Of a stretch of 12,244 nucleotides of DNA, positions 1 to 12,244 are shown one piece after another. Below the pieces are notes generated by a model that saw only the letters and a program-made list of their open reading frames with translations, made no database searches and was not told where the DNA came from. Where the stretch lies: the IMG/VR virus record IMGVR_UViG_2681813321_000010, one strand, 5' to 3'. The translations under genes and the position numbers were made by a program. The DNA is from a virus (lineage: Duplodnaviria > Heunggongvirae > Uroviricota > Caudoviricetes). How positions within the stretch are numbered: the first letter of the stretch is position 1; every line of letters starts with the position of its first letter.

Positions 1-135
1 TGCCTGGTGCCTCCAGGTGACGTTAACCAGTTAACAATTAACGCCGGATACAGAGAATCCACCCATAACACTGTTTTTGGTTTTAACTGTTCCGCGTGCG
101 CTCAGCCGCATTCACCGCATCACAAAATTCACTTT

Positions 136-193
136 AAAAACGGCGGCAGAGCAGTCACGGAGTAAAACTGATACCGCCAAACGTCACCAGAAA
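136..193 (-). ncRNA. dicF: DicF small RNA (cell-division inhibitor sRNA) with intrinsic terminator
   Basis: Minus-strand sequence TTTCTGGTGACGTTTGGCGGTATCAGTTTTACTCCGTGACTGCTCTGCCGCCGTTTTT matches my recollection of E. coli DicF; GGCGG/CCGCC stem followed by a T-run; located downstream of ydfC as in Qin. Confidence 0.8.
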
Positions 194-533: not shown

Positions 534-752
534 TTAACGCGGGTATGTAATCATTCTGGCAATGCTTAATGCCGCTGCTTTTTCCAGCCTGGTGATATCC
601 TGCTCCAGAGCGGACAGATTTTCAGCCTGCTTAGCCCTGGCTTCATTGGCCCATTTCAGATCCTGCGCTGCATTAATTTTCTGGCGCATCCACTCATAAA
701 GTTCATCATCGGTATAGTCTGGCGAGATGATGACGGGTTCTCGTTTCTGCAT
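534..752 (-). CDS. ydfC: YdfC, 72-aa Qin-type prophage protein
   Basis: 72-aa ORF in the track; GAGG ribosome-binding site upstream of the ATG; size and position after ydfB match the dicB operon. Confidence 0.8.
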   Translation of the reverse strand: MQKREPVIISPDYTDDELYEWMRQKINAAQDLKWANEARAKQAENLSALEQDITRLEKAAALSIARMITYPR

Positions 753-781: not shown

Positions 782-910
782 TCAGCCGTTAGATTTTGCC
801 GAGCTGGAAAGCGCCTGTTTAAACTCACTGAAGCTGAGAGCTTCTTCGCCTTCGGCAAGGCCTTCGAAGTATTCTTCGTAAGCCTTTTCCATGATTGTGT
901 CGAAATCCAT
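782..910 (-). CDS. ydfB: YdfB, 42-aa small protein (below the ORF-track size cutoff)
   Basis: Manual translation of the minus strand gives MDFDTIMEKAYEEYFEGLAEGEEALSFSEFKQALSSSAKSNG; its ATG overlaps the ydfA stop (TGATATG); 42 aa matches known YdfB length. Confidence 0.75.
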   Translation of the reverse strand: MDFDTIMEKAYEEYFEGLAEGEEALSFSEFKQALSSSAKSNG

Positions 911-911
911 A

Positions 912-1067
912 TCACTCACCTGAGTTTCTTTCCAGCCAGCGACGGGCACCATTTTCGGTTTTAAACGTTTTGCTTCTGGTATACGTCATCGCGGTAAACG
1001 TGCCGTCCTGGTTGGGAAACACGCCGTACACCAGAGATTCGTTGTTGCCAAGATCGATAGTATCCAT
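912..1067 (-). CDS. ydfA: YdfA, 51-aa small protein
   Basis: Internal ATG of the 69-aa track ORF with a GAGG ribosome-binding site gives MDTIDLGNNESLVYGVFPNQDGTFTAMTYTRSKTFKTENGARRWLERNSGE; 51 aa matches YdfA; first gene after dicA as in Qin. Confidence 0.8.
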   Translation of the reverse strand: MDTIDLGNNESLVYGVFPNQDGTFTAMTYTRSKTFKTENGARRWLERNSGE

Positions 1068-1147
1068 GCTGACCTCATTTCCCCTTAACGCTGGGGTAGC
1101 GGAACTGTTTGCTGAGAACACCGTGCGGTGTGTTGATGCAAATAAGA

Positions 1148-1200
1148 TTAGCCATGGCTAACATATAGGTCAAGTGATTTTGTATGTTATGGCTAACATG
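1148..1200. promoter_or_regulatory. Putative DicA operator pair in the dicA-ydfA intergenic region (dicB-operon promoter region)
   Basis: Perfect palindrome TTAGCCATGGCTAA (1148-1161) and ATGTTA-TGGC-TAACAT (1185-1200) share TTAG/CTAA half-sites with the dicA-dicC intergenic palindromes. Confidence 0.5.
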
Positions 1201-1233
1201 ATTGATGTGGTAAAAGATAACTCATTGATGATG

Positions 1234-1641
1234 TTATCTTTTATTTGTCCGCTGACGGGCTTTTAGTAATTCTTCAAAGAGTTTATTGAAGTTTTTTACT
1301 CGAGCTCGCATTTCGGCGAGCTGGGTATCCTGTTCTGATTCTGGCAGTGCATTAAACAGCTCAAGGAGCTCTAGTTCTTTGGGGGATAAGGCAACTGGCT
1401 TCTCAACAGGTGGTGTTGGTTGCTTGTCTTCATCGCCAAATAGAATCCATGTTGGTGAGCATTGCAATACTTTGCTGAGGGCAAAAAGGTTCTTCCCTGT
1501 AGGTTCACTATCATCCCGTTCCCATTGTGATACAGACACATGGGAGATTTTCAGGGCTTTAGCAAGAGACCTTTGGGTGTGTTTGAGGTTTTTCCGACGA
1601 TACCTAATGCGTTCGCCGATAGTTAAATTTTTTGTTTCCAT
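1234..1641 (-). CDS. dicA: DicA, HTH (Xre-family) repressor of the dicB operon; CI-like immunity repressor
   Basis: 135-aa product METKNLTIGERIRYRRKNLKHTQRSLAKALKISHVSVSQWE... matches my recollection of E. coli K-12 DicA; N-terminal HTH; divergent from dicC. Confidence 0.92.
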   Translation of the reverse strand: METKNLTIGERIRYRRKNLKHTQRSLAKALKISHVSVSQWERDDSEPTGKNLFALSKVLQCSPTWILFGDEDKQPTPPVEKPVALSPKELELLELFNALPESEQDTQLAEMRARVKNFNKLFEELLKARQRTNKR

Positions 1642-1643
1642 AG

Positions 1644-1708
1644 TTAGCTAATGCTAAATCGTATTGACTATGTTTTTGTTAACATCTATTTTGTTAGTTA
1701 TGACTAAC
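1644..1708. promoter_or_regulatory. dicA-dicC divergent control region: two operator palindromes and a candidate rightward promoter
   Basis: TTAGC-TAAT-GCTAA (1644-1657) abuts the dicA start codon; TTGACT (1664-1669), 17-bp spacer, TATTTT (1687-1692); GTTAGT-TATG-ACTAAC (1693-1708) just downstream of the -10. Confidence 0.55.
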
Positions 1709-1724
1709 AATAAAGGTGTTTTAA

Positions 1725-1955
1725 ATGCTTAAAACTGACGCTCTTTTGTATTTCGGTTCAAAAACAAAACTTGCACAAGCAGCAGGTATTCGTTTGGCTT
1801 CGCTTTATAGCTGGAAAGGGGATTTAGTTCCCGAAGGTCGCGCGATGCGTCTACAGGAGGCATCTGGCGGGGAGCTTCAGTATGATCCCAAAGTTTATGA
1901 TGAATATCGTAAGACGAAGCGGGCGGGGCGGTTGAACAATGAAAATCACTCCTGA
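1725..1955 (+). CDS. dicC: DicC, Cro-like regulator
   Basis: 76-aa product MLKTDALLYFGSKTKLAQAAGIRLASLYSWKGDLVPEGRAMRLQEASGGELQYDPKVYDEYRK... matches my recollection of DicC; divergent from dicA. Confidence 0.9.
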   Translation: MLKTDALLYFGSKTKLAQAAGIRLASLYSWKGDLVPEGRAMRLQEASGGELQYDPKVYDEYRKTKRAGRLNNENHS

Positions 1956-2460
1956 ACAGGCTCGTGAGGCTCTGGATGCCTGGATATGTCGACCAGGAAT
2001 GACACAGGAGCAGGCGACGATATTAATCACTGAAGCATTCTGGGCTTTGAAAGAGCGCCCGAACATCGATGTTCAGCGTGTCACAGATGAAGGTGGCGCG
2101 GTTGATCAGCGAGCGCTTGGCGTTAATCGAGTGAAGATATTCGAACGCTGGAAGGCTATCGACACCAGGGATAAGCGTGAAAAGTTCACGGCGCTAGTGC
2201 CTGCGATTATGGAGGCTATCCGGATTAGTGATTTCAGGTTGTATCGTGAGATCAGTGATGGAAAAAGTATTACGTACATGATCGCCGGGTTAAATAAAGA
2301 ATATGGCGATGTGGTGGAATCCGGACTGCTTTTTGCAGATCCTGCCGTTGTAGATCGTGAAACTGACGAACTTATAGAAAAAGCAATTGCTTTCAAGCTT
2401 GCGTATCGACAGCAATACCAACAAAAAGCTGGATGGAATTATGAGTCTTCTTTTTGCTGA
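1939..2460 (+). CDS. YdaT-like protein in the CII position (putative regulator)
   Basis: 173-aa ORF overlapping the dicC 3' end; segment VKIFERWKAIDTRDKREKFTALVPAIMEAI resembles the YdaT-family core as I recall it; family assignment is from memory only. Confidence 0.6.
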   Translation: MKITPEQAREALDAWICRPGMTQEQATILITEAFWALKERPNIDVQRVTDEGGAVDQRALGVNRVKIFERWKAIDTRDKREKFTALVPAIMEAIRISDFRLYREISDGKSITYMIAGLNKEYGDVVESGLLFADPAVVDRETDELIEKAIAFKLAYRQQYQQKAGWNYESSFC

Positions 2461-3406
2461 ACGCCCACTGGTTATAAACACGCAGCTGGCAATGAAAATT
2501 GGCTTAAACGAAGCCATTGTTTTGCAACAACTGCACTACTGGTTGAGAGATACCAACTCCGGCATGGAATGTGATGGTGTTCGCTGGATTTATAACACAA
2601 CGGAACAATGGCTGGAACAGTTCCCATTCTGGTCAGAGTCAACGTTAAAGCGCGCGTTTGCAAGTCTGAAAACGCTGGGGCTTTTGCGTTGTGAAAAGCT
2701 CAATAAATCAAAGCGCGATATGACCAATTTCTACACGATCAACTACGGGAGCGAGCTTTTAGATGGTGGCAAATTGAGCGAATCCATCGGTTTAAAATGC
2801 GCCGCTCCATCAGGTCAAAATGACACGATGGAAGAGGTCAAAATGAAACGCTCCATTGGTTCAAAACGACTCAATGTCATCGGGTCAAAATGGCCTGATG
2901 ATCTTACAGAGAATACAACAGAGATTACTACAGAGAATAAAAAGACTTCTCGTCCGGAAGCTTCGCAACCGGACCCGCAGACGGTTGAACAGGATTTTTT
3001 AACCCGACACCCTGACGCGGTTGTGTTCAGTGCGAAAAAACGCCAGTGGGGCAGCCAGGAAGATTTGGCGTGTGCGCAGTGGATCTGGGGGCGAATCGTG
3101 AGTCTTTACGAGCAGGCCGCCAGCGATGATGGCGAGATTTCGCGACCGAAAGAACCCAACTGGACCGCATGGGCCAACGACGTGCGCACAATGCGGATGC
3201 TGGATGGCAGAACTCACAGACAAATTTGTGAAATGTTTGGTCGGGTGCAGCGGGATCCATTCTGGGTAAAAAATATCATGAGTCCGTCAAAGCTTCGCGA
3301 AAAATGGGATGAACTGGTTATCCGCCTGGGGCGTTCGTCTGTACAGCGTTGTGTGAATCATATTTCTGAGCCGGATACCGAAATTCCGCCGGGCTTCAGG
3401 GGGTAA
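2441..3406 (+). CDS. Replication initiator, lambda O-like (N-terminal DNA-binding domain, TE-rich linker, C-terminal domain)
   Basis: Track ORF begins at TTG 2387; the ATG at 2441 overlaps the upstream stop (ATGAGTCTT...TGA) and is the likelier start; contains iterons plus an AT-rich tract inside the coding sequence, as lambda O does. Confidence 0.75.
   Translation: MSLLFAERPLVINTQLAMKIGLNEAIVLQQLHYWLRDTNSGMECDGVRWIYNTTEQWLEQFPFWSESTLKRAFASLKTLGLLRCEKLNKSKRDMTNFYTINYGSELLDGGKLSESIGLKCAAPSGQNDTMEEVKMKRSIGSKRLNVIGSKWPDDLTENTTEITTENKKTSRPEASQPDPQTVEQDFLTRHPDAVVFSAKKRQWGSQEDLACAQWIWGRIVSLYEQAASDDGEISRPKEPNWTAWANDVRTMRMLDGRTHRQICEMFGRVQRDPFWVKNIMSPSKLREKWDELVIRLGRSSVQRCVNHISEPDTEIPPGFRG
2783..2941 (+). 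repeat. Putative replication origin inside the O-like gene: five iterons followed by three 12-bp A-rich repeats
   Basis: Iterons of consensus about TCCATCGGGTCAAAATG starting at 2783, 2806, 2829, 2852, 2876 (23-24 bp period); then ACAGAGAATACA / ACAGAGATTACT / ACAGAGAATAAA at 2906-2941. Confidence 0.7.
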
Positions 3407-3446
3407 GTGTTAATTTCTGGTCATGAGGTAATTTTCAGGAGGGCTT

Positions 3447-3869
3447 GTGGCAAAAGTTTTTACACAAGAAGAGCGGGAAAAAATTAAAGGGCAGGTTGTT
3501 GAACTCGTACGCCGGAGTGGGCGTGAGACGTTACGGCAACTGGAAGTCAAGACAGGTGCGACAAGATATCTGATGAGCGTTCTCGCAAGAGAGCTGGTTG
3601 CCAGCGGCGATGTATACAACTCTGGTTACGGGTTATTCCCGTCTGAACAGGCGCGTAAGGACTGGCAAAATGCCCGTAAAAAGCTCTCAAGGGCAAAGCT
3701 GAAGGAACCATCTGCGGTTGATCCGGACCTTATCTGGTCATTACCTGACGGAGAAATACGTCGCTACGACAGGCGTCAGAACATAATCTGTCGCGAGTGC
3801 CGGAAGAGTGAAGTTATGCAGCGCATACTAGCATTCTATCAGGGAAATGCTCGATATTTATTGAAGTGA
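3447..3869 (+). CDS. Hypothetical 140-aa protein in the P position after the initiator (C-terminal CxxC)
   Basis: GTG start 4 nt after AGGAGG (3437-3442); the paralog at 7824 has ATG at the same relative position after AGGAGG; conserved between the two modules. Confidence 0.75.
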   Translation: MAKVFTQEEREKIKGQVVELVRRSGRETLRQLEVKTGATRYLMSVLARELVASGDVYNSGYGLFPSEQARKDWQNARKKLSRAKLKEPSAVDPDLIWSLPDGEIRRYDRRQNIICRECRKSEVMQRILAFYQGNARYLLK

Positions 3870-4121
3870 TGAGATTAAAGTTTATTAGTTCAGATATTGA
3901 TTGGCTCTTTTGTGGAGTAGGGTAGAGTTAGTGTGTTTGTCTGCTTGGTGCCAGCAGCGGATATGTTTAACAACAGAAAGCATTCAGCATGGTTAGTGGA
4001 TTTGCAAAGTGGATTAGGATTTGAGAAACTTTGATGAAGTTGTAAAGCTTGTTTCTATAAAAATAGAAATTTAACTAATAGTTAAACACACCTCCAGCTT
4101 CATTGAAAAGGATTATTAGCT

Positions 4122-4547
4122 ATGATTGATCCACTTATTAGAAACTTACAGAGTGATATTGCACTACTCCAGCTTTATATCGCGCAACGCAAACAGGCAG
4201 GCTTTCATGACATGGAAAGAATAATTGAGTCATTGACCATCTTTATGTTTCGCGCGCTGAAAATGGGTGAACTGGTAAACATGAATCAGATTAAAGTTAA
4301 TTTTCCCGCCATTGATTTAGCTGATAATAAAAACATGATAGCAGTTCAAGTTACTACGAATGCAAGTCCAGCAAAAATTAAAAAAACTATCGAATCTTTT
4401 GAGAAAATAAATGAAATAGGAGAGAGTCTGAAAGATAAATACTCTACTTTATATATTTTTGGTTTTAACTGTTCCGCGTGCGCTCAGCCGCATTCACCGC
4501 ATCACAAAATTCACTTTAAAAACGGCGGCAGAGCAGTCACGGAGTAA
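4122..4547 (+). pseudogene. Probable 5' fragment of an AT-rich cargo gene, truncated at the repeat junction (about 4456); the ORF tail runs into the dicF region
   Basis: Strongly AT-rich codons up to 4455, then the last ~30 codons lie in repeat sequence whose copy-1 equivalent (74-165) is preceded by unrelated DNA; ORF end overlaps dicF copy 2 on the opposite strand. Confidence 0.45.
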
Positions 4548-4575
4548 AACTGATACCGCCAAACGTCACCAGAAA
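4518..4575 (-). ncRNA. dicF: DicF small RNA, second copy
   Basis: Identical to 136-193 at offset 4382; in this copy the repeat ends about 60 bp downstream of the terminator, so no dicB can follow. Confidence 0.8.
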
Positions 4576-4915
4576 ATTGATAACAGAGGGCGTTGCAGCG
4601 GGGTTGTCGCTTAAGCGTATGGTCAACCTGACAACCCGGTGTCCTCAACGGGGAAGGAATAACCCCGCCATACTTACCGCCGCGCCATTTCGCGGAGTGC
4701 CACAACCGGAAGCGCACGGTCGACGAAAATTTAACGACAGGCTATCTATGAACCAGCTACCTCGCCGTGCGCTTTCGCGTTATGGTCTGACTTTTCATGG
4801 AAATATCCTTTCAGTAAACTGTCAGTGCCGGATGCTCACCCATGTCCGGCGCACGCACTCCACCTCACCCGTGGAGAACTCCTTAATTACCAACCTTAGC
4901 TTCGTTGGTTAGCTA

Positions 4916-5134
4916 TTAACGCGGGTATGTAATCATTCTGGCAATGCTTAATGCCGCTGCTTTTTCCAGCCTGGTGATATCCTGCTCCAGAGCGGACAGA
5001 TTTTCAGCCTGCTTAGCCCTGGCTTCATTGGCCCATTTCAGATCCTGCGCTGCATTAATTTTCTGGCGCATCCACTCATAAAGTTCATCATCGGTATAGT
5101 CTGGCGAGATGATGACGGGTTCTCGTTTCTGCAT
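4916..5134 (-). CDS. ydfC: YdfC, second copy
   Basis: 72-aa ORF identical in protein to 534-752. Confidence 0.8.
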   Translation of the reverse strand: MQKREPVIISPDYTDDELYEWMRQKINAAQDLKWANEARAKQAENLSALEQDITRLEKAAALSIARMITYPR

Positions 5135-5163
5135 ACTGATTCCTCGCGGTGCTGCTTCGCTTA

Positions 5164-5292
5164 TCAGCCGTTAGATTTTGCCGAGCTGGAAAGCGCCTGT
5201 TTAAACTCACTGAAGCTGAGAGCTTCTTCGCCTTCGGCAAGGCCTTCGAAGTATTCTTCGTAAGCCTTTTCCATGATTGTGTCGAAATCCAT
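5164..5292 (-). CDS. ydfB: YdfB, second copy (42 aa)
   Basis: DNA identical to 782-910 at offset 4382. Confidence 0.75.
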   Translation of the reverse strand: MDFDTIMEKAYEEYFEGLAEGEEALSFSEFKQALSSSAKSNG

Positions 5293-5293
5293 A

Positions 5294-5449
5294 TCACTCA
5301 CCTGAGTTTCTTTCCAGCCAGCGACGGGCACCATTTTCGGTTTTAAACGTTTTGCTTCTGGTATACGTCATCGCGGTAAACGTGCCGTCCTGGTTGGGAA
5401 ACACGCCGCATACCAGAGATTCGTTGTTGCCAAGATCGATAGTATTCAT
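5294..5449 (-). CDS. ydfA: YdfA, second copy (51 aa, two substitutions relative to copy 1)
   Basis: Same internal ATG as copy 1; product MNTIDLGNNESLVCGVFPNQ... Confidence 0.8.
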   Translation of the reverse strand: MNTIDLGNNESLVCGVFPNQDGTFTAMTYTRSKTFKTENGARRWLERNSGE

Positions 5450-5529
5450 GCTGACCTCATTTCCCCTTAACGCCGGGGTAGCGGAACTGTTTGCTGAGAA
5501 CACCGTGCGGTGTCTTGGTGGAGATTAAT

Positions 5530-5579
5530 TTAGAATAACCTAACAAATGTAGCAAGTATTTTTGTTAGATTGGTCTAAC
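5530..5579. promoter_or_regulatory. Putative operator pair downstream of the dicA-like gene (module 2 leftward-operon control region)
   Basis: TTAGAATAACCTAA (5530-5543) and palindrome GTTAGA-TTGG-TCTAAC (5564-5579); same TTAG/CTAA half-site logic as module 1. Confidence 0.45.
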
Positions 5580-5616
5580 AAAAAGAGTGAGGGAATCTAA
5601 GTATCTGAAAGGAGTG

Positions 5617-6024
5617 TTATTTTATTGATTTGTTTTTACGTGCTTTAAGCATTTCTTCGAAGAGTTTATTGAAATTCTCTACTCTTGCGCGCATTTCAGA
5701 CAGTAAGGCTTCCTGCTCGGAGGAGGGAAGAGCATCGAATAATTCGATCAATTCTTTGTGGCTGGGAGTTAACTCGGTTTCCACATGAAGTTCTTGTGCT
5801 GGCACTGGTGCCTTGTCTTCGTCACCAAACATTAGCCATGTAGGCGAGCACTTCAGCGCATCAGCTAAAGCAAATAACCGCTTCCCGACCGGTTGGGTTT
5901 CGTCTCTTTCCCATTGTGAAATTGTGACGTGAGCTACCCCAGCGAGGCGTGCAGCTTCTCGTTGTGTTAGGCGTAATTCTTTTCGTCGTGCCAGAACTCG
6001 CTGGCCTAGGGTTCTTGTATCCAT
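5617..6024 (-). CDS. DicA-like HTH repressor, divergent paralog (CI-like immunity repressor of module 2)
   Basis: 135 aa; C-terminal half nearly identical to DicA (...CSPTW..FGDEDK...EMRARV.NFNKLFEE.LKAR), N-terminal HTH diverged (QREAARLAGVAHVTISQWE). Confidence 0.85.
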   Translation of the reverse strand: MDTRTLGQRVLARRKELRLTQREAARLAGVAHVTISQWERDETQPVGKRLFALADALKCSPTWLMFGDEDKAPVPAQELHVETELTPSHKELIELFDALPSSEQEALLSEMRARVENFNKLFEEMLKARKNKSIK

Positions 6025-6030
6025 AGTTAG

Positions 6031-6090
6031 GTAATTCTAATTTTTCTTGACTTAGGTATCCCGCGCACATTACTGTTAGGAATATCTAAC
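6031..6090. promoter_or_regulatory. Module 2 divergent control region with operator palindromes
   Basis: TTAGGTAATTCTAA (6031-6044) abuts the dicA-like start; TTGACT at 6047-6052; GTTAGGAATATCTAAC (6075-6090) precedes the dicC-like gene. Confidence 0.45.
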
Positions 6091-6104
6091 AAGAGGGGGC
6101 TTTG

Positions 6105-6332
6105 ATGCTTAAAGTTGACGCAATTACTTTTTTTGGCAGCAAAACAAAACTTGCCAATGCCGCAGGAGTGAAACTGGCAAGTGTTGCTGCATGGGGGGAA
6201 CTGGTTCCTGAAGGTCGCGCGATGCGCCTGCAAGAGGCATCCGGCGGGGAACTTCAGTACGACCCCAAAGTTTATGACGAATATCGTAAGGCAAAGCGGG
6301 CGGGGCGGTTGAACAATGAAAATCACCCCTGA
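6105..6332 (+). CDS. DicC-like Cro-type regulator (paralog)
   Basis: Track ORF starts at TTG 6102; ATG at 6105 preceded by GAGGGGG; product about 85% identical to DicC by eye. Confidence 0.85.
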   Translation: MLKVDAITFFGSKTKLANAAGVKLASVAAWGELVPEGRAMRLQEASGGELQYDPKVYDEYRKAKRAGRLNNENHP

Positions 6333-6837
6333 ACAGGTTTGTGAGGCTCTGGATGCCTGGGTATGCCGACCAGGAATGACACAGGAGCAGGCGACGATAT
6401 TAATCACGGAAGCATTCTGGGCTCTGAAAGAACGCCCGAACATCGATGTTCAACGCGTCACGTTTAATGATGGCGAGGTTGATCAACGGGCGTTGGGCGT
6501 TAACCGGGTGAAGATATTCGAACGCTGGAAAGCTATCGACACCAGGGATAAGCGGGAAAAATTCACGGCGCTGATTCCGGCAATTATGGAGGCTATCCGG
6601 ATCAGCGATTTCAGGTTGTATTGTGAAATTACTGACGGAAAAAGCATTACGTACATGATCGCCGGGTTAAACAAAGAATATGGTGATGTGGTGGAGTCCG
6701 GGCTGCTTTTTGCGGATCCATCTGTTGTGGAACGTGAGACTGACGAGCTTATAGAAAAAGCTATTGCTTTCAAGCATGCGTATCGTCAGCAATACCAACA
6801 AAAAGCTGGATGGAATTATGAGCCTTCTTTTTGCTGA
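6316..6837 (+). CDS. YdaT-like protein in the CII position (paralog of 1939-2460)
   Basis: 173 aa, roughly 90% identical by eye to the module 1 copy; same overlap arrangement with neighbouring genes. Confidence 0.6.
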   Translation: MKITPEQVCEALDAWVCRPGMTQEQATILITEAFWALKERPNIDVQRVTFNDGEVDQRALGVNRVKIFERWKAIDTRDKREKFTALIPAIMEAIRISDFRLYCEITDGKSITYMIAGLNKEYGDVVESGLLFADPSVVERETDELIEKAIAFKHAYRQQYQQKAGWNYEPSFC

Positions 6838-7783
6838 ACGCCCACTGGTTATAAACACACAGCTTGCGATGAAGATTGGCTTAAATGAAGCCATTGTGTT
6901 GCAGCAGTTGCATTACTGGTTGAGAGATACCAGTTCCGGTATGGAATGTGACGGGGTTCGCTGGATTTATAACACAACAGAACAATGGCTGGAACAGTTC
7001 CCGTTCTGGTCAGAGTCAACGTTAAAACGCGCATTTGCAAGTCTGAAAACGCTGGGGCTTTTGCGTTGCGAAAAGCTCAACAAATCAAAGCGTGATATGA
7101 CTAATTTTTACACGATTAATTACGAGAGTGAGCTTTTAGATGGTGGCAAAGTGAGCGAATCCATCAGGTCAAAATGCGCCGCTCCATCGGGTCAAAATGA
7201 CACGATGGAAGAGGTCAAAATGGCACGCTCCATTGGTTCAAAACGACCCAATGTCATCGGGTCAAAATGGCCTGATGATCTTACAGAGAATACAACAGAG
7301 ATTACTACAGAGAATAAAAACACTTCTCGTCCGGAAGCTTCGCAACCGGACCCGCAGACGGCTGAACAGGATTTTTTAACCCGACACCCTGACGCGGTTG
7401 TGTTCAGTGCGAAAAAACGCCAGTGGGGAAGTCAGGAAGATTTGGCGTGCGCACAGTGGATCTGGGGACGAATCGTGAGTCTTTACGAGCAGGCTGCCAG
7501 CGATGATGGCGAGATCACGCGACCGAAAGAACCAAACTGGACCGCATGGGCCAATGACGTGCGCACAATGCGGATGCTGGATGGCAGAAGCCACAGACAA
7601 ATTTGCGAAATGTTTGGTCGGGTACAGCGAGATCCATTCTGGGTAAAAAACATCATGAGCCCGTCAAAGCTTCGCGAAAAATGGGACGACCTGGTCATCC
7701 GCCTGGGGCGTTCACCTGTACAGTGTTGTGTGAATCATATTTCTGAACCGGATACCGAAATTCCGCCTGGTTTCAGGGGATAA
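6818..7783 (+). CDS. Replication initiator, lambda O-like (paralog)
   Basis: ATG at 6818 overlaps the upstream stop exactly as in module 1; carries the equivalent iterons. Confidence 0.75.
   Translation: MSLLFAERPLVINTQLAMKIGLNEAIVLQQLHYWLRDTSSGMECDGVRWIYNTTEQWLEQFPFWSESTLKRAFASLKTLGLLRCEKLNKSKRDMTNFYTINYESELLDGGKVSESIRSKCAAPSGQNDTMEEVKMARSIGSKRPNVIGSKWPDDLTENTTEITTENKNTSRPEASQPDPQTAEQDFLTRHPDAVVFSAKKRQWGSQEDLACAQWIWGRIVSLYEQAASDDGEITRPKEPNWTAWANDVRTMRMLDGRSHRQICEMFGRVQRDPFWVKNIMSPSKLREKWDDLVIRLGRSPVQCCVNHISEPDTEIPPGFRG
7160..7318 (+). repeat. Putative replication origin of module 2 (five iterons plus A-rich 12-bp repeats)
   Basis: Iterons begin at 7160, 7183, 7206, 7229, 7253, the same positions as module 1 at offset 4377. 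Confidence 0.7.
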
Positions 7784-7823
7784 GTGGTGATTTTAGGGCA
7801 TAAAGTAATGTTCAGGAGGACTT

Positions 7824-8231
7824 ATGGCAAAAGTATTTACACAGGAAGAGCGGGAAAAAATTAAAGGACAGGTGGTGGAACTCGTGCGCCAGAGCGGTCG
7901 TGAGACGTTACGGCAACTGGAAGCTAAAACAGGTGCGACAAGATATCTGATGAGCGTTCTTGCCAGAGAGCTGGTTGCCAGTGGTGATGTATATCACTCT
8001 GGCTATGGGGTGTTCCCGTCAGAACGGGCTCGTAAGGACTGGCAAAACGCCCGCAAAAAACTCTCGAGGGCAAAGGTGAAGAAACCTGTTGTGGTTGATC
8101 CGGGCCTTATCTGGACATTACCCGACGGAGAAATACGCCGCTACGACAGGCGTATGAACATAATCTGTCGCGAGTGCCGGAAGAGCGAAGTTATGCAGCG
8201 TGTATTGGCGTTCTATCAGGGATATGCCTAG
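7824..8231 (+). CDS. Hypothetical 135-aa protein in the P position (paralog of 3447-3869)
   Basis: ATG 4 nt after AGGAGG; about 90% identical by eye to the module 1 copy. Confidence 0.75.
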   Translation: MAKVFTQEEREKIKGQVVELVRQSGRETLRQLEAKTGATRYLMSVLARELVASGDVYHSGYGVFPSERARKDWQNARKKLSRAKVKKPVVVDPGLIWTLPDGEIRRYDRRMNIICRECRKSEVMQRVLAFYQGYA

Positions 8232-8599
8232 AATTGTCACAGGTAATGAAATTAAAGAGTATTGGTTCGGATATGAATTGACATTTTCGCGGCACAGAGC
8301 TAAAAATAGCCTACTTGTTGGTTTTGTGTGAAAAGCAGACATTTTGAGGCTCAGGATTTGTTATCAAATAAGACCAATACTTATCTATATTAATACACAT
8401 TAAATACTGTGCAATACATTATTGCATTTTATTAGATAAGCGATATTTAGGGAAAAGAAAAGTCATAGAAAACAGGCCGCTATTTGTTGTTGGATTTTAT
8501 AGGCTATATCTAGATTATCTTGCCACTGCGGTCTCTGTTTACCTAACAGCTTGGGCTTCTTTGCATGCAAGTTTGTAATAACAAGAGTAATCAAACGGA

Positions 8600-9631
8600 A
8601 TGTCTATTAATCCTAAACTTAAGCGTATCGCGCGACGCTATCCAGCGTTATTCCAATATGAGTCCCCCTATATGGCAAGAAAATTAATAATATTCGGCAA
8701 CGGTCTCGGTATGGCTTTAGATCCTGCTCACTTCTCCTTAGACAGAGCGTTGGAAGAAATTTGGCATCGCCCCAATTTTTTAAAAGATATCCACAAGCAA
8801 CTTATCGAGCGTTGTCTTCAGCGGCAAGGTCCACCAGAAGGAGAACATGAGTTGGATACCCTTCACCAGGCTGTCACATATTGTAAAGCTCTTGCTCAAA
8901 TTGGAGAGGGGAACGTGCATTGGCTTACTGAAGATGGACTAAACTTCCCCAAAATTACCGCCACTTATATTCACAAAGTTGCAACCAGGTTGCATAATTA
9001 CGATAAAGGTTTGCCACAAAGATTCGAAAATGCGCTTGTGGAGTTTGTAAAGAACACACACTCACATATCGCGACATTAAACTATGACAAATTATTATAC
9101 AATTCATTCATAGATAATGATATATTCAACGGGTATGATGGGGTTTTAGTTGATGGGATGCTAAGCCACGGATTTTCCTCTGCAGCGCTCGAACGGAAAT
9201 ACAATCGTAGGTTTGGTTATTATTTGCACTTGCATGGTTCACCACTATTTATTAATCAGCATGAAAATGTTTTAAAACTTTCACGCTCACAACTTACTCT
9301 TGACATAGATGAACCTAGTGAGCATATAGTGTTAACTCATATAAAAAGAAAACCGTCAGTTATAGCAGCATCTAATGTTCTTTCTACGTACTGGGATTAT
9401 TTGCAGTTTGCATTATTTGAATCAGAAGAAATAATATTGTTTGGTTACTCTGGTCTCGATATTCACCTTAACCTGCTTATTCGACCTTACCTAACCTCTA
9501 AGCCTTTAAGAGTAATTGAGTGGAGCGGTGCTGGTGAACAAAACGCTCGTGAGATATATTGGAAAAACCAGTTGAGACGGGAAGTTACTGTAATTAGGTT
9601 GGATAACATCACTGATTTTATTGATTGGTAG
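8600..9631 (+). CDS. SIR2-like (SIR2_2-type) single-domain protein, candidate NAD-consuming defence or abortive-infection effector
   Basis: 343 aa, AT-rich codon usage; ordered motifs LIIFGNGLG (Rossmann-like), TLNYDKL (sirtuin-type N/D), YLHLHGS (His), ILFGYSGLD, in the same order as SIR2-like domains such as Thoeris ThsA; preceded by about 370 bp of AT-rich DNA. Confidence 0.6.
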   Translation: MSINPKLKRIARRYPALFQYESPYMARKLIIFGNGLGMALDPAHFSLDRALEEIWHRPNFLKDIHKQLIERCLQRQGPPEGEHELDTLHQAVTYCKALAQIGEGNVHWLTEDGLNFPKITATYIHKVATRLHNYDKGLPQRFENALVEFVKNTHSHIATLNYDKLLYNSFIDNDIFNGYDGVLVDGMLSHGFSSAALERKYNRRFGYYLHLHGSPLFINQHENVLKLSRSQLTLDIDEPSEHIVLTHIKRKPSVIAASNVLSTYWDYLQFALFESEEIILFGYSGLDIHLNLLIRPYLTSKPLRVIEWSGAGEQNAREIYWKNQLRREVTVIRLDNITDFIDW

Positions 9632-9701
9632 CGCAATGCGAAGTTAAAGAGGCAGCCTCATATTTATCAGAGCTGGTGTACGTCCAATACAGGAGGTTAT
9701 C

Positions 9702-9791
9702 GTGCTGGTTCTCAAATGCGCGCTGGCTATTGCGGCTGTAGTGGCAATTTATTGTCTTGCTATTGTTCTTATGGATCGCCTTTCTGATTGA
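9702..9791 (+). CDS. Candidate 29-aa hydrophobic single-helix peptide (VLVLKCALAIAAVVAIYCLAIVLMDRLSD)
   Basis: GTG start 5 nt after a perfect AGGAGG (9691-9696); uniformly hydrophobic core of about 20 residues; below the ORF-track size cutoff. Confidence 0.4.
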   Translation: MLVLKCALAIAAVVAIYCLAIVLMDRLSD

Positions 9792-10002
9792 TTTTATATT
9801 GGCGAGGTGACGGGAGTTAAGTAGAATTGCTGCGGGTGCTTGAGGCTGTCTGCCTCGGGCATGCCACCGTAAGGCAGACAGAGAAAAGCCCCAGTTAACA
9901 TTACGCGTCCTGCAAGACGCTTAACATTAATCTGAGGCCCAATCTATGCTTCACAAACGTAGGTTAGCCTCTTACGCGCCGAAAGGCAAGGAGAAGCAGG
10001 CT

Positions 10003-10158
10003 ATGAAGCAGCAAAAGGCGATGTTAATCGCCCTGATCGTCATCTGTTTAACCGTCATAGTGACGGCACTGGTAACGAGGAAAGACCTCTGCGAGGTACG
10101 AATCCGAACCGGCCAGACGGAGGTCGCTGTCTTCACAGCTTACGAACCTGAGGAGTAA
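10003..10158 (+). CDS. hokD: HokD (RelF), Hok/Gef-family type I membrane toxin
   Basis: MKQQKAMLIALIVICLTVIVTALVTRKDLCEVRIRTGQTEVAVFTAYEPEE matches my recollection of HokD and the Hok signature (TRK.LCE.R...G..EVA.F.AYE); the track ORF from 9946 is an in-frame upstream extension. Confidence 0.85.
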   Translation: MKQQKAMLIALIVICLTVIVTALVTRKDLCEVRIRTGQTEVAVFTAYEPEE

Positions 10159-10226
10159 GAGACCAGGCGGGGGAGAAATCCCTCGCCACCGCTGATGTGT
10201 CAGGCATCCTCAACGCACCCGCACTT

Positions 10227-10253
10227 AACCCGCTTCGGCGGGTTTTTGTTTTT
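10227..10253 (+). terminator. Intrinsic terminator after hokD
   Basis: CCCGC-TTCG-GCGGG stem-loop (10229-10242) followed by TTTTTGTTTTT. Confidence 0.8.
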
Positions 10254-10266
10254 ATTTTCAACGCAT

Positions 10267-10296
10267 TTGAAGTTCTGGACGGTGTCGGAATAGAAT
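10267..10296 (+). promoter_or_regulatory. Candidate sigma70 promoter for the 83-aa gene
   Basis: TTGAAG (10267-10272), 18-bp spacer, TAGAAT (10291-10296); lies just after the hokD terminator. Confidence 0.4.
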
Positions 10297-10374
10297 CAAA
10301 AATACTTAAGTAGCGCGCAGGGATAAGAGGGATGGTCCCTTAAAGGGGAGAGCTAATTATCCGGAAGGATTCTG

Positions 10375-10626
10375 ATGATGAACATCGAAGAACTGCGTAA
10401 AATTTTTTGTGAAGATGGCCTCTATGCTGTGTGCGTTGAAAATGGAAATATTGTTAGTCATTACCGCATTGTGTGTTTGCGAAAGAATGGGGCTGCGTTA
10501 ATTAATTTTGTGGATGGTCGAGTGACAGACGGATTTATCTTGCGCGAAGGTGAGTTTGTCACTTCATTACAGGCACTGAAAGAGATCGGAATAAAAGCTG
10601 GCTTTTCTGCTTTTTCAGAAGAATAA
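10375..10626 (+). CDS. 83-aa hypothetical prophage protein, possibly the Rem homolog
   Basis: GGAAGG 6 nt upstream of the ATG; same size as Rem (83 aa) and same position between hokD and the ydfU-like gene as in Qin; I cannot recall the Rem sequence to confirm. Confidence 0.65.
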   Translation: MMNIEELRKIFCEDGLYAVCVENGNIVSHYRIVCLRKNGAALINFVDGRVTDGFILREGEFVTSLQALKEIGIKAGFSAFSEE

Positions 10627-10692
10627 ACTCATCTACAATCTTGCGCGGGGCTGAACTCCCGCTGAGTAACACCGTGCCGCCGGAGGAAACCG

Positions 10693-10971
10693 ATGGCACG
10701 CAACGCAAAATATTACAATCATGATAATTCGACCGTTCTTGCCCACACGCACGAGCGGTATTCTCACGCATTTAAGTCAGACTGGTACCAGCATCCCCCA
10801 TGCACTGAAGAACAGGCCGAATGGCTCATTCAGTGTTACCGCAGGCGCGGATGCGAGGTTAAAAAAGCCCTTAGCCTCGACTACCGTCACTGGATAATCT
10901 CCGTCGGGCTTCCTTACTCCGAACGCCCACCGCGTCTGTCCCGCACATTCCAGCAACGCATCTGGAGGTAA
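10693..10971 (+). CDS. 92-aa hypothetical protein
   Basis: GGAGG 7 nt upstream of the ATG; stop immediately precedes the next gene's start. Confidence 0.6.
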   Translation: MARNAKYYNHDNSTVLAHTHERYSHAFKSDWYQHPPCTEEQAEWLIQCYRRRGCEVKKALSLDYRHWIISVGLPYSERPPRLSRTFQQRIWR

Positions 10972-10972
10972 C

Positions 10973-12022
10973 GTGCGGGTATTACTTCGACCTGTTCTGG
11001 TACCGGAACTCGGGCTGGTGGTCCTTAAGCCCGGTCGCGAATCACTGCCGGTTTTTCATTGCGGCAGGGTGCTGGTGGAGCCGGAACCGAAAAGCATGCG
11101 CGGTCTGCCGTCCGGAGTCGTCCCTGCCGTTCGCCAGCCGCTGGCGGAGGATAAATCATTACTGCCATTTTTCAGCGATGAGCGTGTGATTCGTGCTGCT
11201 GGCGGCGCTGGCGCACTGTCTGACTGGCTCCTGCGTCATGTCAAATCCTGCCAGTGGCCTCATGGTGACTACCATCACAGTGAAACCGTCATACATCGTT
11301 ATGGTACCGGCGCAATGGTGTTGTGCTGGCACTGCGACAACCAGCTGCGCGACCAGACCTCCGAATCACTCGGGCAACTTGCTCACCAAAACCTGTCTGC
11401 ATGGATGATTGACGTCATACGCCATGCAATGAATGGCTCGCAGGAACGGGAATTATCGCTGGCTGAATTATCCTGGTGGGCGATCCGCAATCAGGTGGCG
11501 GACGCGCTACCGGAAGCGGTATTACGTCGTTCGCTGGGGTTGCGTGCGGAAAAAATCCGCTCAATGTACCGTGAAAGCGACATCGTACCGGGAGAGCAGA
11601 CCGCCACCAGCATACTGAAACAGCGCACAAAAAATCTTGCGCCGCTGCCTCACGCCCACCAGCAACAGAACCCGCCACAGGAAAAGACGGTGGTCAGCAT
11701 TGCTGTTGATCCGGAGTCTCCGGAATCTTTAATGAAGCGACCTAAACGTCGCCGTTGGGTAAATGAGAAATATACGCGCTGGGTAAAGACACAGCCGTGT
11801 GCGTGTTGTGGTAAGCCAGCCGACGATCCCCATCACCTGATTGGTCATGGTCAGGGCGGAATAGGGACAAAAGCCCACGATATTTTCACGCTACCGTTGT
11901 GCCGGGAGCATCACAACGAACTTCATGCTGATCCGCTGGCATTTGAAGAAAAGCATGGTTCCCAGATTGATTTAATTTTTCGTTTTCTTGATCGCGCCTT
12001 TGCAACCGGCGTGCTCGGGTAA
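10973..12022 (+). CDS. DUF968-family prophage protein (YdfU-like) with a C-terminal HNH-like Cys/His motif
   Basis: 349 aa; GTG start after GGAGG; C-terminus CACCGKPADDPHHLIGHG...LPLCREHHNELHA resembles HNH/zinc-binding nuclease motifs; size and synteny match Qin ydfU. Confidence 0.7.
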   Translation: MRVLLRPVLVPELGLVVLKPGRESLPVFHCGRVLVEPEPKSMRGLPSGVVPAVRQPLAEDKSLLPFFSDERVIRAAGGAGALSDWLLRHVKSCQWPHGDYHHSETVIHRYGTGAMVLCWHCDNQLRDQTSESLGQLAHQNLSAWMIDVIRHAMNGSQERELSLAELSWWAIRNQVADALPEAVLRRSLGLRAEKIRSMYRESDIVPGEQTATSILKQRTKNLAPLPHAHQQQNPPQEKTVVSIAVDPESPESLMKRPKRRRWVNEKYTRWVKTQPCACCGKPADDPHHLIGHGQGGIGTKAHDIFTLPLCREHHNELHADPLAFEEKHGSQIDLIFRFLDRAFATGVLG

Positions 12023-12034
12023 AAGAGGTTACTG

Positions 12035-12244
12035 ATGCGTATAGAGTTTGTTTTGCCTTACCCGCCGACGGTGAACACCTACTGGCGACGTCGTGGCAGC
12101 ACATATTTTGTGTCAAAAGCCGGTGAGCGTTATCGCCGGGATGTGGCACTTATTGTTCGCCAGCAGCGGCTGAAATTAAACCTGTCCGGAAGGCTGGCGA
12201 TAAAGATTATTGCAGAGCCACCGGATAAGCGCCGCCGCGACCTG
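12035..12244 (+). CDS. rusA: RusA-family Holliday-junction resolvase, 5' partial (runs off the window end)
   Basis: MRIEFVLPYPPTVNTYWRRRG...YRRDVALIV...IKIIAEPPDKRRRDL matches the RusA N-terminal pattern (P..N.Y....G......YR..VA.I......I.I....PD.RRRDLDN); AGAGG ribosome-binding site. Confidence 0.8.
   Translation, partial: MRIEFVLPYPPTVNTYWRRRGSTYFVSKAGERYRRDVALIVRQQRLKLNLSGRLAIKIIAEPPDKRRRDL

Follow-up and report, generated by a model that had tools for sequence, protein, structure and literature searches.

Two allelic versions of the DicA/DicC immunity switch in a Qin-like prophage stretch: look-alike operators, an inner base that differs between subtypes and a possible link through the antirepressor Rem

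The 12244-bp stretch of DNA from the IMG/VR virus record IMGVR_UViG_2681813321_000010 (the window) carries two Qin-like lambdoid early regions in tandem, with a spacing of 4382 bp, each of which encodes a 135-amino-acid repressor of the DicA family next to the ydfA-ydfB-ydfC-DicF block. The DicA/DicC immunity switch of lambdoid prophages is thus present as two alleles: module 1 is the already known dicA-dicC switch of the Escherichia coli K-12 prophage Qin, and module 2, the repressor of which we refer to as Rep2, is an uncharacterised but common allele of the same system. The original prediction held that, since the operators of the two modules look alike, the two repressors would overlap in specificity, and that their similar C-terminal halves might let them form heterodimers. 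The view that we lean towards, with some reservation, is that the modules represent two related immunity types that cross-bind only weakly at the DNA level, and that cross-talk between them would run mainly through a shared antirepressor, the Qin protein Rem.

The palindromes on which the original prediction was built are real and far beyond what chance would provide. The window contains seven exact matches to TTAG-N6-CTAA (at positions 1148, 1644, 1694, 5530, 5565, 6027 and 6076) against 0.14 expected, a number that was attained in none of 200 shuffles of the window sequence. All seven lie inside four intergenic control regions that make up ~385 of the 12244 bp, and a search with the extended motif GTTAG-N6-CTAAC, allowing at most one mismatch, recovers the same seven sites. 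That such palindromes occupy three equivalent places in each module was likewise correctly seen; across the family there are four conserved positions.

Immunity region 1 (1122–1724) shares 98.3% nucleotide identity with dicA-dicC of MG1655 and is found in 851 of 5426 complete E. coli genomes. Its operator in front of dicC, which overlaps the predicted -10 element of the dicC promoter, is the K-12 operator Oc. In K-12, DicA binds Oc in vivo, a single A-to-C change in CTAACAA abolishes the binding, and DicA at Oc both represses dicC and activates dicA (Yun et al., PMC3441716); DicA also represses dicBp, the promoter upstream of ydfA (Ragunathan et al., PMC10448788). Because of this match to K-12, exact Oc included, and the published work on DicA and Rem, module 1 counts as a known system. 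The original prediction overlooked both that Oc is an already defined DicA operator and that Rem offers a route of cross-talk. Immunity region 2 (5504–6101) is present in 566 of the 5426 complete genomes, and Rep2 is 99% identical to the repressor of the E. coli B prophage at the Qin site. With K-12 Qin, module 1 shares an identical Oc as well as the dicC promoter and the ydfABC-DicF operon, and module 2 shares the order of its genes and the places of its operators. The differences from K-12 are that the module 2 repressor is only 58% identical to DicA and its operators carry a purine, not a pyrimidine, inside GTTAG; that the replication region is intact in both window modules but lost in K-12 Qin; and that the tandem layout is seen neither in K-12 nor in other complete E. 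coli genomes.

In both modules the repressor gene is the direct upstream neighbour of ydfA-ydfB-ydfC-DicF, the position from which the dicBF operon is controlled. Both also show the layout of a lambdoid immunity region: a divergent Cro-family gene, repeated inverted repeats that overlap the promoters, and a second set of operators on the leftward side. The two repressors score well above the cut-off of 101 of the curated DicA model (NCBIfam NF007257 / PRK09706), and the two Cro-like proteins, which are 83% identical to each other, likewise qualify under the DicC and P22_Cro models. The original prediction of two DicA-type repressors with divergent Cro-like genes is thus well founded. On the minus strand, the promoter-proximal left operator of module 1 appears, on our reading of the sequence, to fall between the TTGACC -35 and the -10 region of a dicBp-like promoter. 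The more distal left site of module 1 is degenerate, and its counterpart (+39..43 past the repressor stop codon) is intact in other genera. A sigma-70 promoter scan of module 2 gave no consensus match, and promoter placements there were read by eye from the sequence.

The look-alike half-site is a trait of the whole family and not a peculiarity of the DicA/Rep2 pair. We surveyed operators at 57 loci from species-representative genomes and at 11 from a gene index. In about 35 loci, spanning at least a dozen genera, the GTTAG core is kept, and TTAG-N6-CTAA recurs, at four fixed positions: two counted from the repressor ATG (-65/-66 and -16) and two past the stop codon of the repressor gene (+39..43 and +73..79). 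The genera with these fixed offsets are Escherichia, Citrobacter, Buttiauxella, Enterobacter, Pantoea, Erwinia, Serratia, Rosenbergiella, Rahnella, Yersinia, Rouxiella, Cronobacter, Klebsiella and Salmonella. TTAG-N6-CTAA was absent from the surveyed loci whose repressors combine the same C-terminal domain (CTD) with another recognition helix (HATISLW, GSSISLW, DSSISLW, YASISLW, SSVSVFKW or HVTIFKW). The shared GTTAG core would reflect the constancy of the recognition helix within the family: when 20 diverse members are aligned, Q21, H32, V33, S36, Q37, W38, E39 and R40 do not vary. IMG/VR itself was discarded as a source of operator diversity, as nearly all of the 80 loci that it returned were 99–100% identical to repressor 2.

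A separate feature of these loci is a conserved CTAACT, with no Shine-Dalgarno sequence, ahead of the repressor ATG (window 1642–1660 and 6025–6043; position -16 in other loci). In many genera only 3 nt separate the end of the operator at this position, named 'Oa' in K-12, from the repressor ATG. The repressor mRNA may therefore be leaderless or inefficiently translated, or the repressor may regulate itself at the Oa site.

Within this common framework, the two subtypes differ at the base that follows TTAG. Among unique sites with perfect arms, this inner base is a pyrimidine in 24 of 24 half-sites at DicA-type loci (helix HVSV) and a purine in 62 of 68 half-sites at Rep2-type loci (helix HVTI), a split by subtype with a Fisher p of 7e-17 that is not corrected for phylogeny. 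The window follows the same rule: all three perfect sites of module 1 read TTAG-Y...R-CTAA and all four sites of module 2 read TTAG-R...Y-CTAA (Y, pyrimidine; R, purine). The two operator classes are told apart by no more than three columns of the protein alignment, those of DicA L30, I32 and S36, and the last of these (Ser36/Thr34, Thr in Rep2) sits within the recognition helix. A divergent repressor from Arsenophonus (IAHVSISQWE), with mostly pyrimidine-type half-sites, is the sole second lineage that supports the link to the helix. On our own alignment of the TpA steps with those of the P22 operator (PMC5175364), the inner base would occupy the position of the conserved G/C of the P22 half-site TTAAG.

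Two other candidate determinants of the inner base were rejected. The Arg/Asn alternative at the motif GK[NR]LF, a position that by our own alignment is equivalent to Arg43 of the 434 repressor, fails in that Asn repressors of Rosenbergiella, Rahnella and Yersinia keep purine-type sites; the Asp/Glu alternative at the position of P22 Glu42 was ruled out on the same grounds.

Weight matrices trained on non-Escherichia loci only separate the operators of the two modules. On the matrix of their own type the sites of each module score 20.7–26.3 bits; on the opposite matrix, module-2 sites score 10.4–12.6 bits and module-1 sites 3.5–19.8 bits, the top value of 19.8 being that of Oc. The operators of the other module are nevertheless the next-best sites in the window for each matrix, at 10–20 bits, when the 99.9th percentile of the background is at most 3.3 bits. 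Some overlap of specificity is therefore plausible, the core being common and the cross-scores standing above the background, but the half-sites are not equivalent since the inner base differs. By inner base and cross-type matrix score, the operators are not interchangeable in the way that homoimmunity demands. The difference would point to distinct rather than common immunity, as with the heteroimmune Salmonella repressors GfoR and GfhR, and residual cross-recognition is possible, most plausibly of DicA's Oc by Rep2.

The opposite reading is full cross-recognition, that is homoimmunity, in which both repressors read only the GTTAG/CTAAC core and the inner base reflects neutral drift or the tuning of affinity. 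The outer arms TTGTTAG/CTAACAA are indeed identical in the Oc of module 1 and in the module 2 sites at 5562–5581 and 6073–6092, the two repressors do not differ in those residues of the recognition helix that face the bases, and recognition by P22 c2 is dominated by Val33 in the TTAA cleft, with the central bases uncontacted (PMC5175364). However, the inner base is held across many genera of each subtype, which argues for constraint, and the closest characterised pair, GfoR/GfhR, is heteroimmune (PMC3121763). Genome co-occurrence bears on the question from both sides. One or other type was found by a combined query in 1394 complete E. coli genomes, and 23 genomes hold both when 88.8 would be expected (hypergeometric P = 4e-20), a deficit that would speak for homoimmunity. 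Yet 23 genomes do hold both, and the deficit is at least partly allelism, as K-12 and E. coli B carry their respective types at the same rspB-adjacent Qin site. We rejected the deficit as decisive evidence for homoimmunity, the types being alleles at the same attachment site and K-12 laboratory strains being over-sampled. In E. coli B (NZ_CP117044.1, 1614474–1633072) a Rep2-type repressor (99%) stands at the rspB-adjacent site where K-12 has DicA, and on account of this shared site we regard the DicA and Rep2 types as largely alleles of one locus. Taken together, we consider full cross-recognition unlikely.

At the protein level, the repressors are 58% identical overall, with 50% identity in the N-terminal domain (NTD), 33% in the linker and 63% in the CTD. 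The original prediction had described them as differing across the helix-turn-helix (HTH) domain and almost identical in the C-terminal half. The first description does not fit the recognition helix, which is nearly the same in both (SHVSVSQWER in repressor 1, AHVTISQWER in repressor 2), and the second overstates what is a higher conservation of the CTD. Both proteins begin with a five-helix HTH of the XRE/P22-c2 type (Pfam HTH_3; phmmer match to P22 c2 with E = 8e-20), and the AlphaFold2 (AF2) model superposes on the c2–operator complex 3jxb with a Foldseek TM-score of 0.96 and a root-mean-square deviation (rmsd) of 0.7 Å. At 135 amino acids, both match only HTH families and have no S24 peptidase domain. 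In the AF2 model the HTH is followed by a low-confidence linker (67–86), a short helix (87–97) and a long helix (101–133). Most of this C-terminal hairpin is also invariant in the alignment of 20 diverse family members, and its hydrophobic positions are identical between DicA and Rep2.

The NTD of P22 c2 (PDB 2r1j, 3jxb) has the same fold as that of the DicA family, ~50% identity and a Val at the same position of the recognition helix, and by our own alignment the TpA steps of the half-sites lie 10 bp apart in both (TTAAG-N4-CTTAA in P22, TTAG-N6-CTAA here). P22 c2 differs in having Asn where the DicA family has His and in having a CTD with RecA-stimulated self-cleavage, in place of which the DicA family has a helical hairpin of ~45 residues with no cleavage site (PMC10448788). 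Among full-length Foldseek matches, SinR-SinI and the arbitrium repressors with AimX (1b0n, 9sf2, 9iaq) share the combination of an XRE HTH with a short helical C-terminal oligomerisation domain, and in these systems too a small antagonist protein targets the repressor; with rmsd values above 9 Å and ~20–25% identity, the likeness is an analogy only and we claim no homology.

Could the conserved hairpin let DicA and Rep2 form mixed dimers, at the expense of functional homodimers or with binding to hybrid sites? Apart from the recognition helix, no part is better conserved than the CTD, its hydrophobic positions agree between the two proteins, and the modelled arrangement of a short and a long helix after a disordered linker would suit a dimerisation domain. 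GfoR runs as a dimer in gel filtration (PMC3121763), and DicA is present in only ~20–25 copies per cell (PMC7567609), so that losses to mixed dimers would matter. On the other side, the window holds no hybrid (Y/R) operator, and the CTD is no less conserved in those family members whose recognition helices are quite different, which fits a shared partner, for example an antirepressor, at least as well. Heterodimer cross-talk is, in our judgement, improbable. DicA-family homologues are spread across Enterobacterales, and the DNA-binding and C-terminal modules of the family appear to evolve separately. In the E. coli/Shigella flexneri assemblies ECMA0423, SFBU1023 and SFBU0723, the repressor gene copies are full of frameshifts; these are either decayed pseudogenes or the product of error-rich assemblies.

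A shared antirepressor is where the preferred reading, two types largely insulated on the DNA and coupled at the protein level, finds a precedent. In K-12, Rem derepresses dicBp 165-fold (PMC10448788). The window encodes a single Rem, 95% identical to the K-12 protein, downstream of module 2, and the Rem of E. coli B is likewise 95% identical to that of K-12. A near-identical Rem thus accompanies DicA in K-12 and Rep2 in E. coli B, in prophage B of the genome FDAARGOS_1059 and in the window. Because the same antirepressor is linked to DicA in one case and to Rep2 in the others, this distribution hints that both repressors are targets of Rem, by way of some feature common to the two. The Gifsy-1/Gifsy-3 pair of Salmonella works in such a way: GfoR and GfhR, ~135 amino acids long, 66% similar, residing in the same cell and uncleaved on induction (Lemire et al. 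2011, PMC3121763), use different operators and are heteroimmune, and each is inactivated by both of the small antirepressors GfoA and GfhA (PMC3121763). GfoR is a dimer and its complex with the antirepressor has an apparent A2B2 composition (PMC3121763). The same study places DicA in one group with GfoR/GfhR (PMC3121763). By analogy with Gifsy, coupling via Rem would be the best-supported route of cross-talk. The comparison of the Gifsy pair with DicA/Rep2 covers size, relatedness and the published behaviour of the Gifsy repressors; a query of the phage collection with the Salmonella homologue, made for operator comparison, matched no Gifsy records. The systems differ in that LexA controls the Gifsy antirepressors: a search of the window for the LexA box CTGT-N8-ACAG gave only one-mismatch matches, at chance level, none of them upstream of rem, and thus no good LexA box for Rem.

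In prophage A of FDAARGOS_1059, which is of the DicA type, the region after hokD (locus 9741–11796) has no rem and instead encodes a 216-amino-acid hypothetical protein and a 367-amino-acid HTH protein. If the DicA of prophage A is inducible by an antirepressor, it may need one supplied by the other prophage of the strain.

Several observations weigh against two well-insulated types coupled by Rem. In K-12, Oc was the only site that DicA bound in vivo; the other two sites predicted from sequence, Oa and Om, were reported as unbound (PMC3441716, where the data are not shown), and some of the palindromes in the window may accordingly not be functional repressor sites. Discrimination by the inner base is not absolute, because 6 of the 68 Rep2-type half-sites carry a pyrimidine, and the score of DicA's Oc almost equals that of a genuine Rep2 site. 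The pyrimidine class comprises about two independent lineages, the DicA clade and Arsenophonus, and for this reason the Fisher p-value overstates the evidence. Since the repressor gene, cro and the operators form a single inherited unit, it could be Cro that reads the inner base. The case for Rem acting on Rep2, finally, comes from linkage.

With these points in mind, the following mechanism may be proposed. The repressor would be a short, non-cleavable protein of the XRE type, with a P22-c2-like NTD, a flexible linker and a C-terminal helical hairpin, and would target 20-bp inverted repeats built on TTGTTAG-N6-CTAACAA. By binding the Oc-type site over the -10 element of the rightward dicC/cro promoter it would shut off dicC, the ydaT-like gene and the replication genes, and in K-12 the same site additionally serves to activate the repressor's own gene. 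The leftward promoter of ydfA-ydfB-ydfC-DicF appears to be overlapped by one or two operators. Because the inner base differs between the subtypes, a pyrimidine in the DicA-type consensus GTTAGCCATGGCTAAC and a purine in the Rep2-type consensus GTTAGRWWWWYCTAAC, the prediction is that each repressor acts chiefly on the module that encodes it. Cross-binding on DNA would then be weak and lopsided, with Rep2 on DicA's Oc as the likeliest case. The likeliest route of cross-talk would be a single Rem acting on both repressors, and mixed dimers through the conserved CTD may contribute as well.

The physical arrangement of the two modules calls for separate consideration. The window is a mosaic relative to FDAARGOS_1059, a genome that carries both types in separate prophages 1.16 Mb apart: positions 1 to ~1002 are prophage-B sequence, identical to copy 2; a crossover lies within ydfA, between 1002 and 1027; positions 1027–4466 match prophage A with zero mismatches; and positions 4456–12244 match prophage B with one mismatch. 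At the junction a SMEK-domain gene (4122–4466) is cut after ~115 codons and fused, at an 11-bp microhomology, to module 2 sequence. Because the junction joins the dicB–DicF spacer to this gene, module 2 is without dicB; for copy 1, dicB lies outside the window.

There is an appreciable chance, short of an even one, that the side-by-side modules are an assembly or cloning chimera of two prophages from one genome, in which case cross-talk could occur only in trans. The junction was not found in the 5426 complete E. coli genomes, the GTDB representatives, the JGI metagenomes or IMG/VR, nor was the chimeric SMEK open reading frame (ORF) found in the gene index; and FDAARGOS_1059 has the parts at separate loci, one of them 99.99% identical and the other mismatch-free beyond window position 1002. 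Against an artefact, one crossover in the homologous ydfA combined with one at an 11-bp microhomology is the signature of homology-facilitated illegitimate recombination, and an overlap of 11 bp is too short to mislead a k-mer assembler. The regulatory question stands with or without the tandem, because the two modules coexist in trans in real genomes. Should the tandem be real, one could imagine a prophage with two switches in series, in which the inner base is read by the fourth residue of the recognition helix, Ser in one repressor and Thr in the other, Rep2 on Oc sets up a one-way hierarchy, and both repressors are tied through the hairpin to Rem and perhaps, in mixed dimers, to one another; we give this elaborate version little credence. 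Note that the DicF-ydfC-ydfB-ydfA blocks at 74–1026 and 4456–5408 are 100% identical to each other, and their counterparts in the two separate prophages of FDAARGOS_1059 only 97%.

The remaining features of the window are collected in the table below. On the minus strand, each module carries DicF, ydfC, ydfB, ydfA and the repressor gene, and on the plus strand a Cro-like gene (75–76 amino acids), a gene of the YdaT family, a replication gene and a DUF977 gene. Together with DicF, ydfC-ydfB-ydfA copy 1 constitutes the 'dicB operon', which runs leftward under the control of the promoter in 1122–1233. Beyond module 2 follow a SIR2-family gene, hok/sok, rem and a DUF968 gene. The hok/sok type I toxin–antitoxin locus lies at 9834–10158, with sok identified by Rfam at 116 bits and the HokD-like ORF ending at 10158. 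The cargo of the slot between DUF977 and hokD varies among related prophages: the SIR2-family gene here (window 8600–9631), a SMEK-domain gene with a methyltransferase in prophage A of FDAARGOS_1059 (locus 6423–8230), QueH in E. coli B (locus 11741–12693) and flxA/ydfV/relBE in K-12 (locus 8217–9608). Such variety makes the slot look like a hotspot of defence or accessory functions.

Table. Genes, operators and other features of the window (bit scores of operators refer to the DicA-type and Rep2-type weight matrices).
Feature	Position	Strand	Evidence or remark
DicF small RNA (sRNA), copy 1	141..192	(-)	Rfam RF00039, 72.5 bits vs gathering score 48
ydfC, copy 1	534-752	(-)	ORF; matching annotated genes in FDAARGOS_1059 and K-12
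ydfB, copy 1	782-910	(-)	ORF; matching annotated genes in FDAARGOS_1059 and K-12
ydfA/DUF1391, copy 1	912-1067	(-)	ORF; matching annotated genes in FDAARGOS_1059 and K-12
Module 1 leftward-promoter operator, promoter-proximal, AGATTAGCCATGGCTAACAT, Y-type	1145..1164		25.0 bits DicA-type, 9.5 Rep2-type
Module 1 distal left operator, degenerate, single good half-site (GGCTAACAT)	1180..1199		16.1 bits DicA-type, 3.5 Rep2-type
Repressor 1 = DicA, K-12 type, 135 amino acids	1234..1641	(-)	NF007257, 235.6 bits; NTD homologous to P22 c2 NTD, E = 8e-20
Module 1 operator by repressor start ('Oa' position, -16), TAGTTAGCTAATGCTAAATC	1641..1660		TTAG-N6-CTAA match
dicC promoter-like site: TTGACT, 17-nt spacer, TATTTT	1664..1692	(+)	agrees with putative dicC -35/-10 of PMC3441716
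Module 1 operator Oc, TTGTTAGTTATGACTAACAA	1691..1710		reverse complement of published K-12 Oc TTGTTAGTCATAACTAACAA
DicC (Cro-like), module 1	1725..1955	(+)	NF007282, 159.5 bits vs cut-off 130; Pfam P22_Cro
Junction of modules, 11-bp microhomology TTTTTGGTTTT	4456..4466		truncated SMEK-domain gene to module 2 dicB-DicF spacer
DicF sRNA, copy 2	4523..4574	(-)	Rfam RF00039, 72.5 bits
Module 2 leftward-promoter operator, promoter-proximal, AATTTAGAATAACCTAACAA, R-type	5527..5546		24.9 bits Rep2-type, 10.4 DicA-type
Module 2 distal left operator, TTGTTAGATTGGTCTAACAA, R-type	5562..5581		20.7 bits Rep2-type, 11.5 DicA-type
Repressor 2 (Rep2), DicA-family allele, 135 amino acids	5617..6024	(-)	NF007257, 224 bits; 58% identical to DicA
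Module 2 operator by repressor start, TAGTTAGGTAATTCTAATTT	6024..6043		24.1 bits Rep2-type, 12.6 DicA-type
Module 2 Oc-equivalent operator before cro gene, CTGTTAGGAATATCTAACAA	6073..6092		23.6 bits Rep2-type, 12.6 DicA-type
DicC/Cro-like protein, module 2	6105..6332	(+)	DicC and P22_Cro models; start codon per FDAARGOS_1059 annotation
Rem, antirepressor of DicA, single copy, downstream of module 2	10375..10626	(+)	95% identical to K-12 Rem

The outcome would be incremental, in that it would extend the picture of cross-talk known from the Gifsy prophages to Escherichia and overturn nothing. The analysis yields one candidate specificity residue and one candidate operator base, and K-12 (DicA type) and E. 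coli B (Rep2 type), with the same chromosomal site and a near-identical Rem, make a ready-made pair for the study of cross-immunity. DicF affects virulence regulation in enterohaemorrhagic E. coli, the strains of which carry several copies. Across E. coli genomes, Qin-like early regions occupy a median of 2 places and a maximum of 12 per genome, and whether such switches are insulated or coupled decides whether the induction signal of one prophage releases others.

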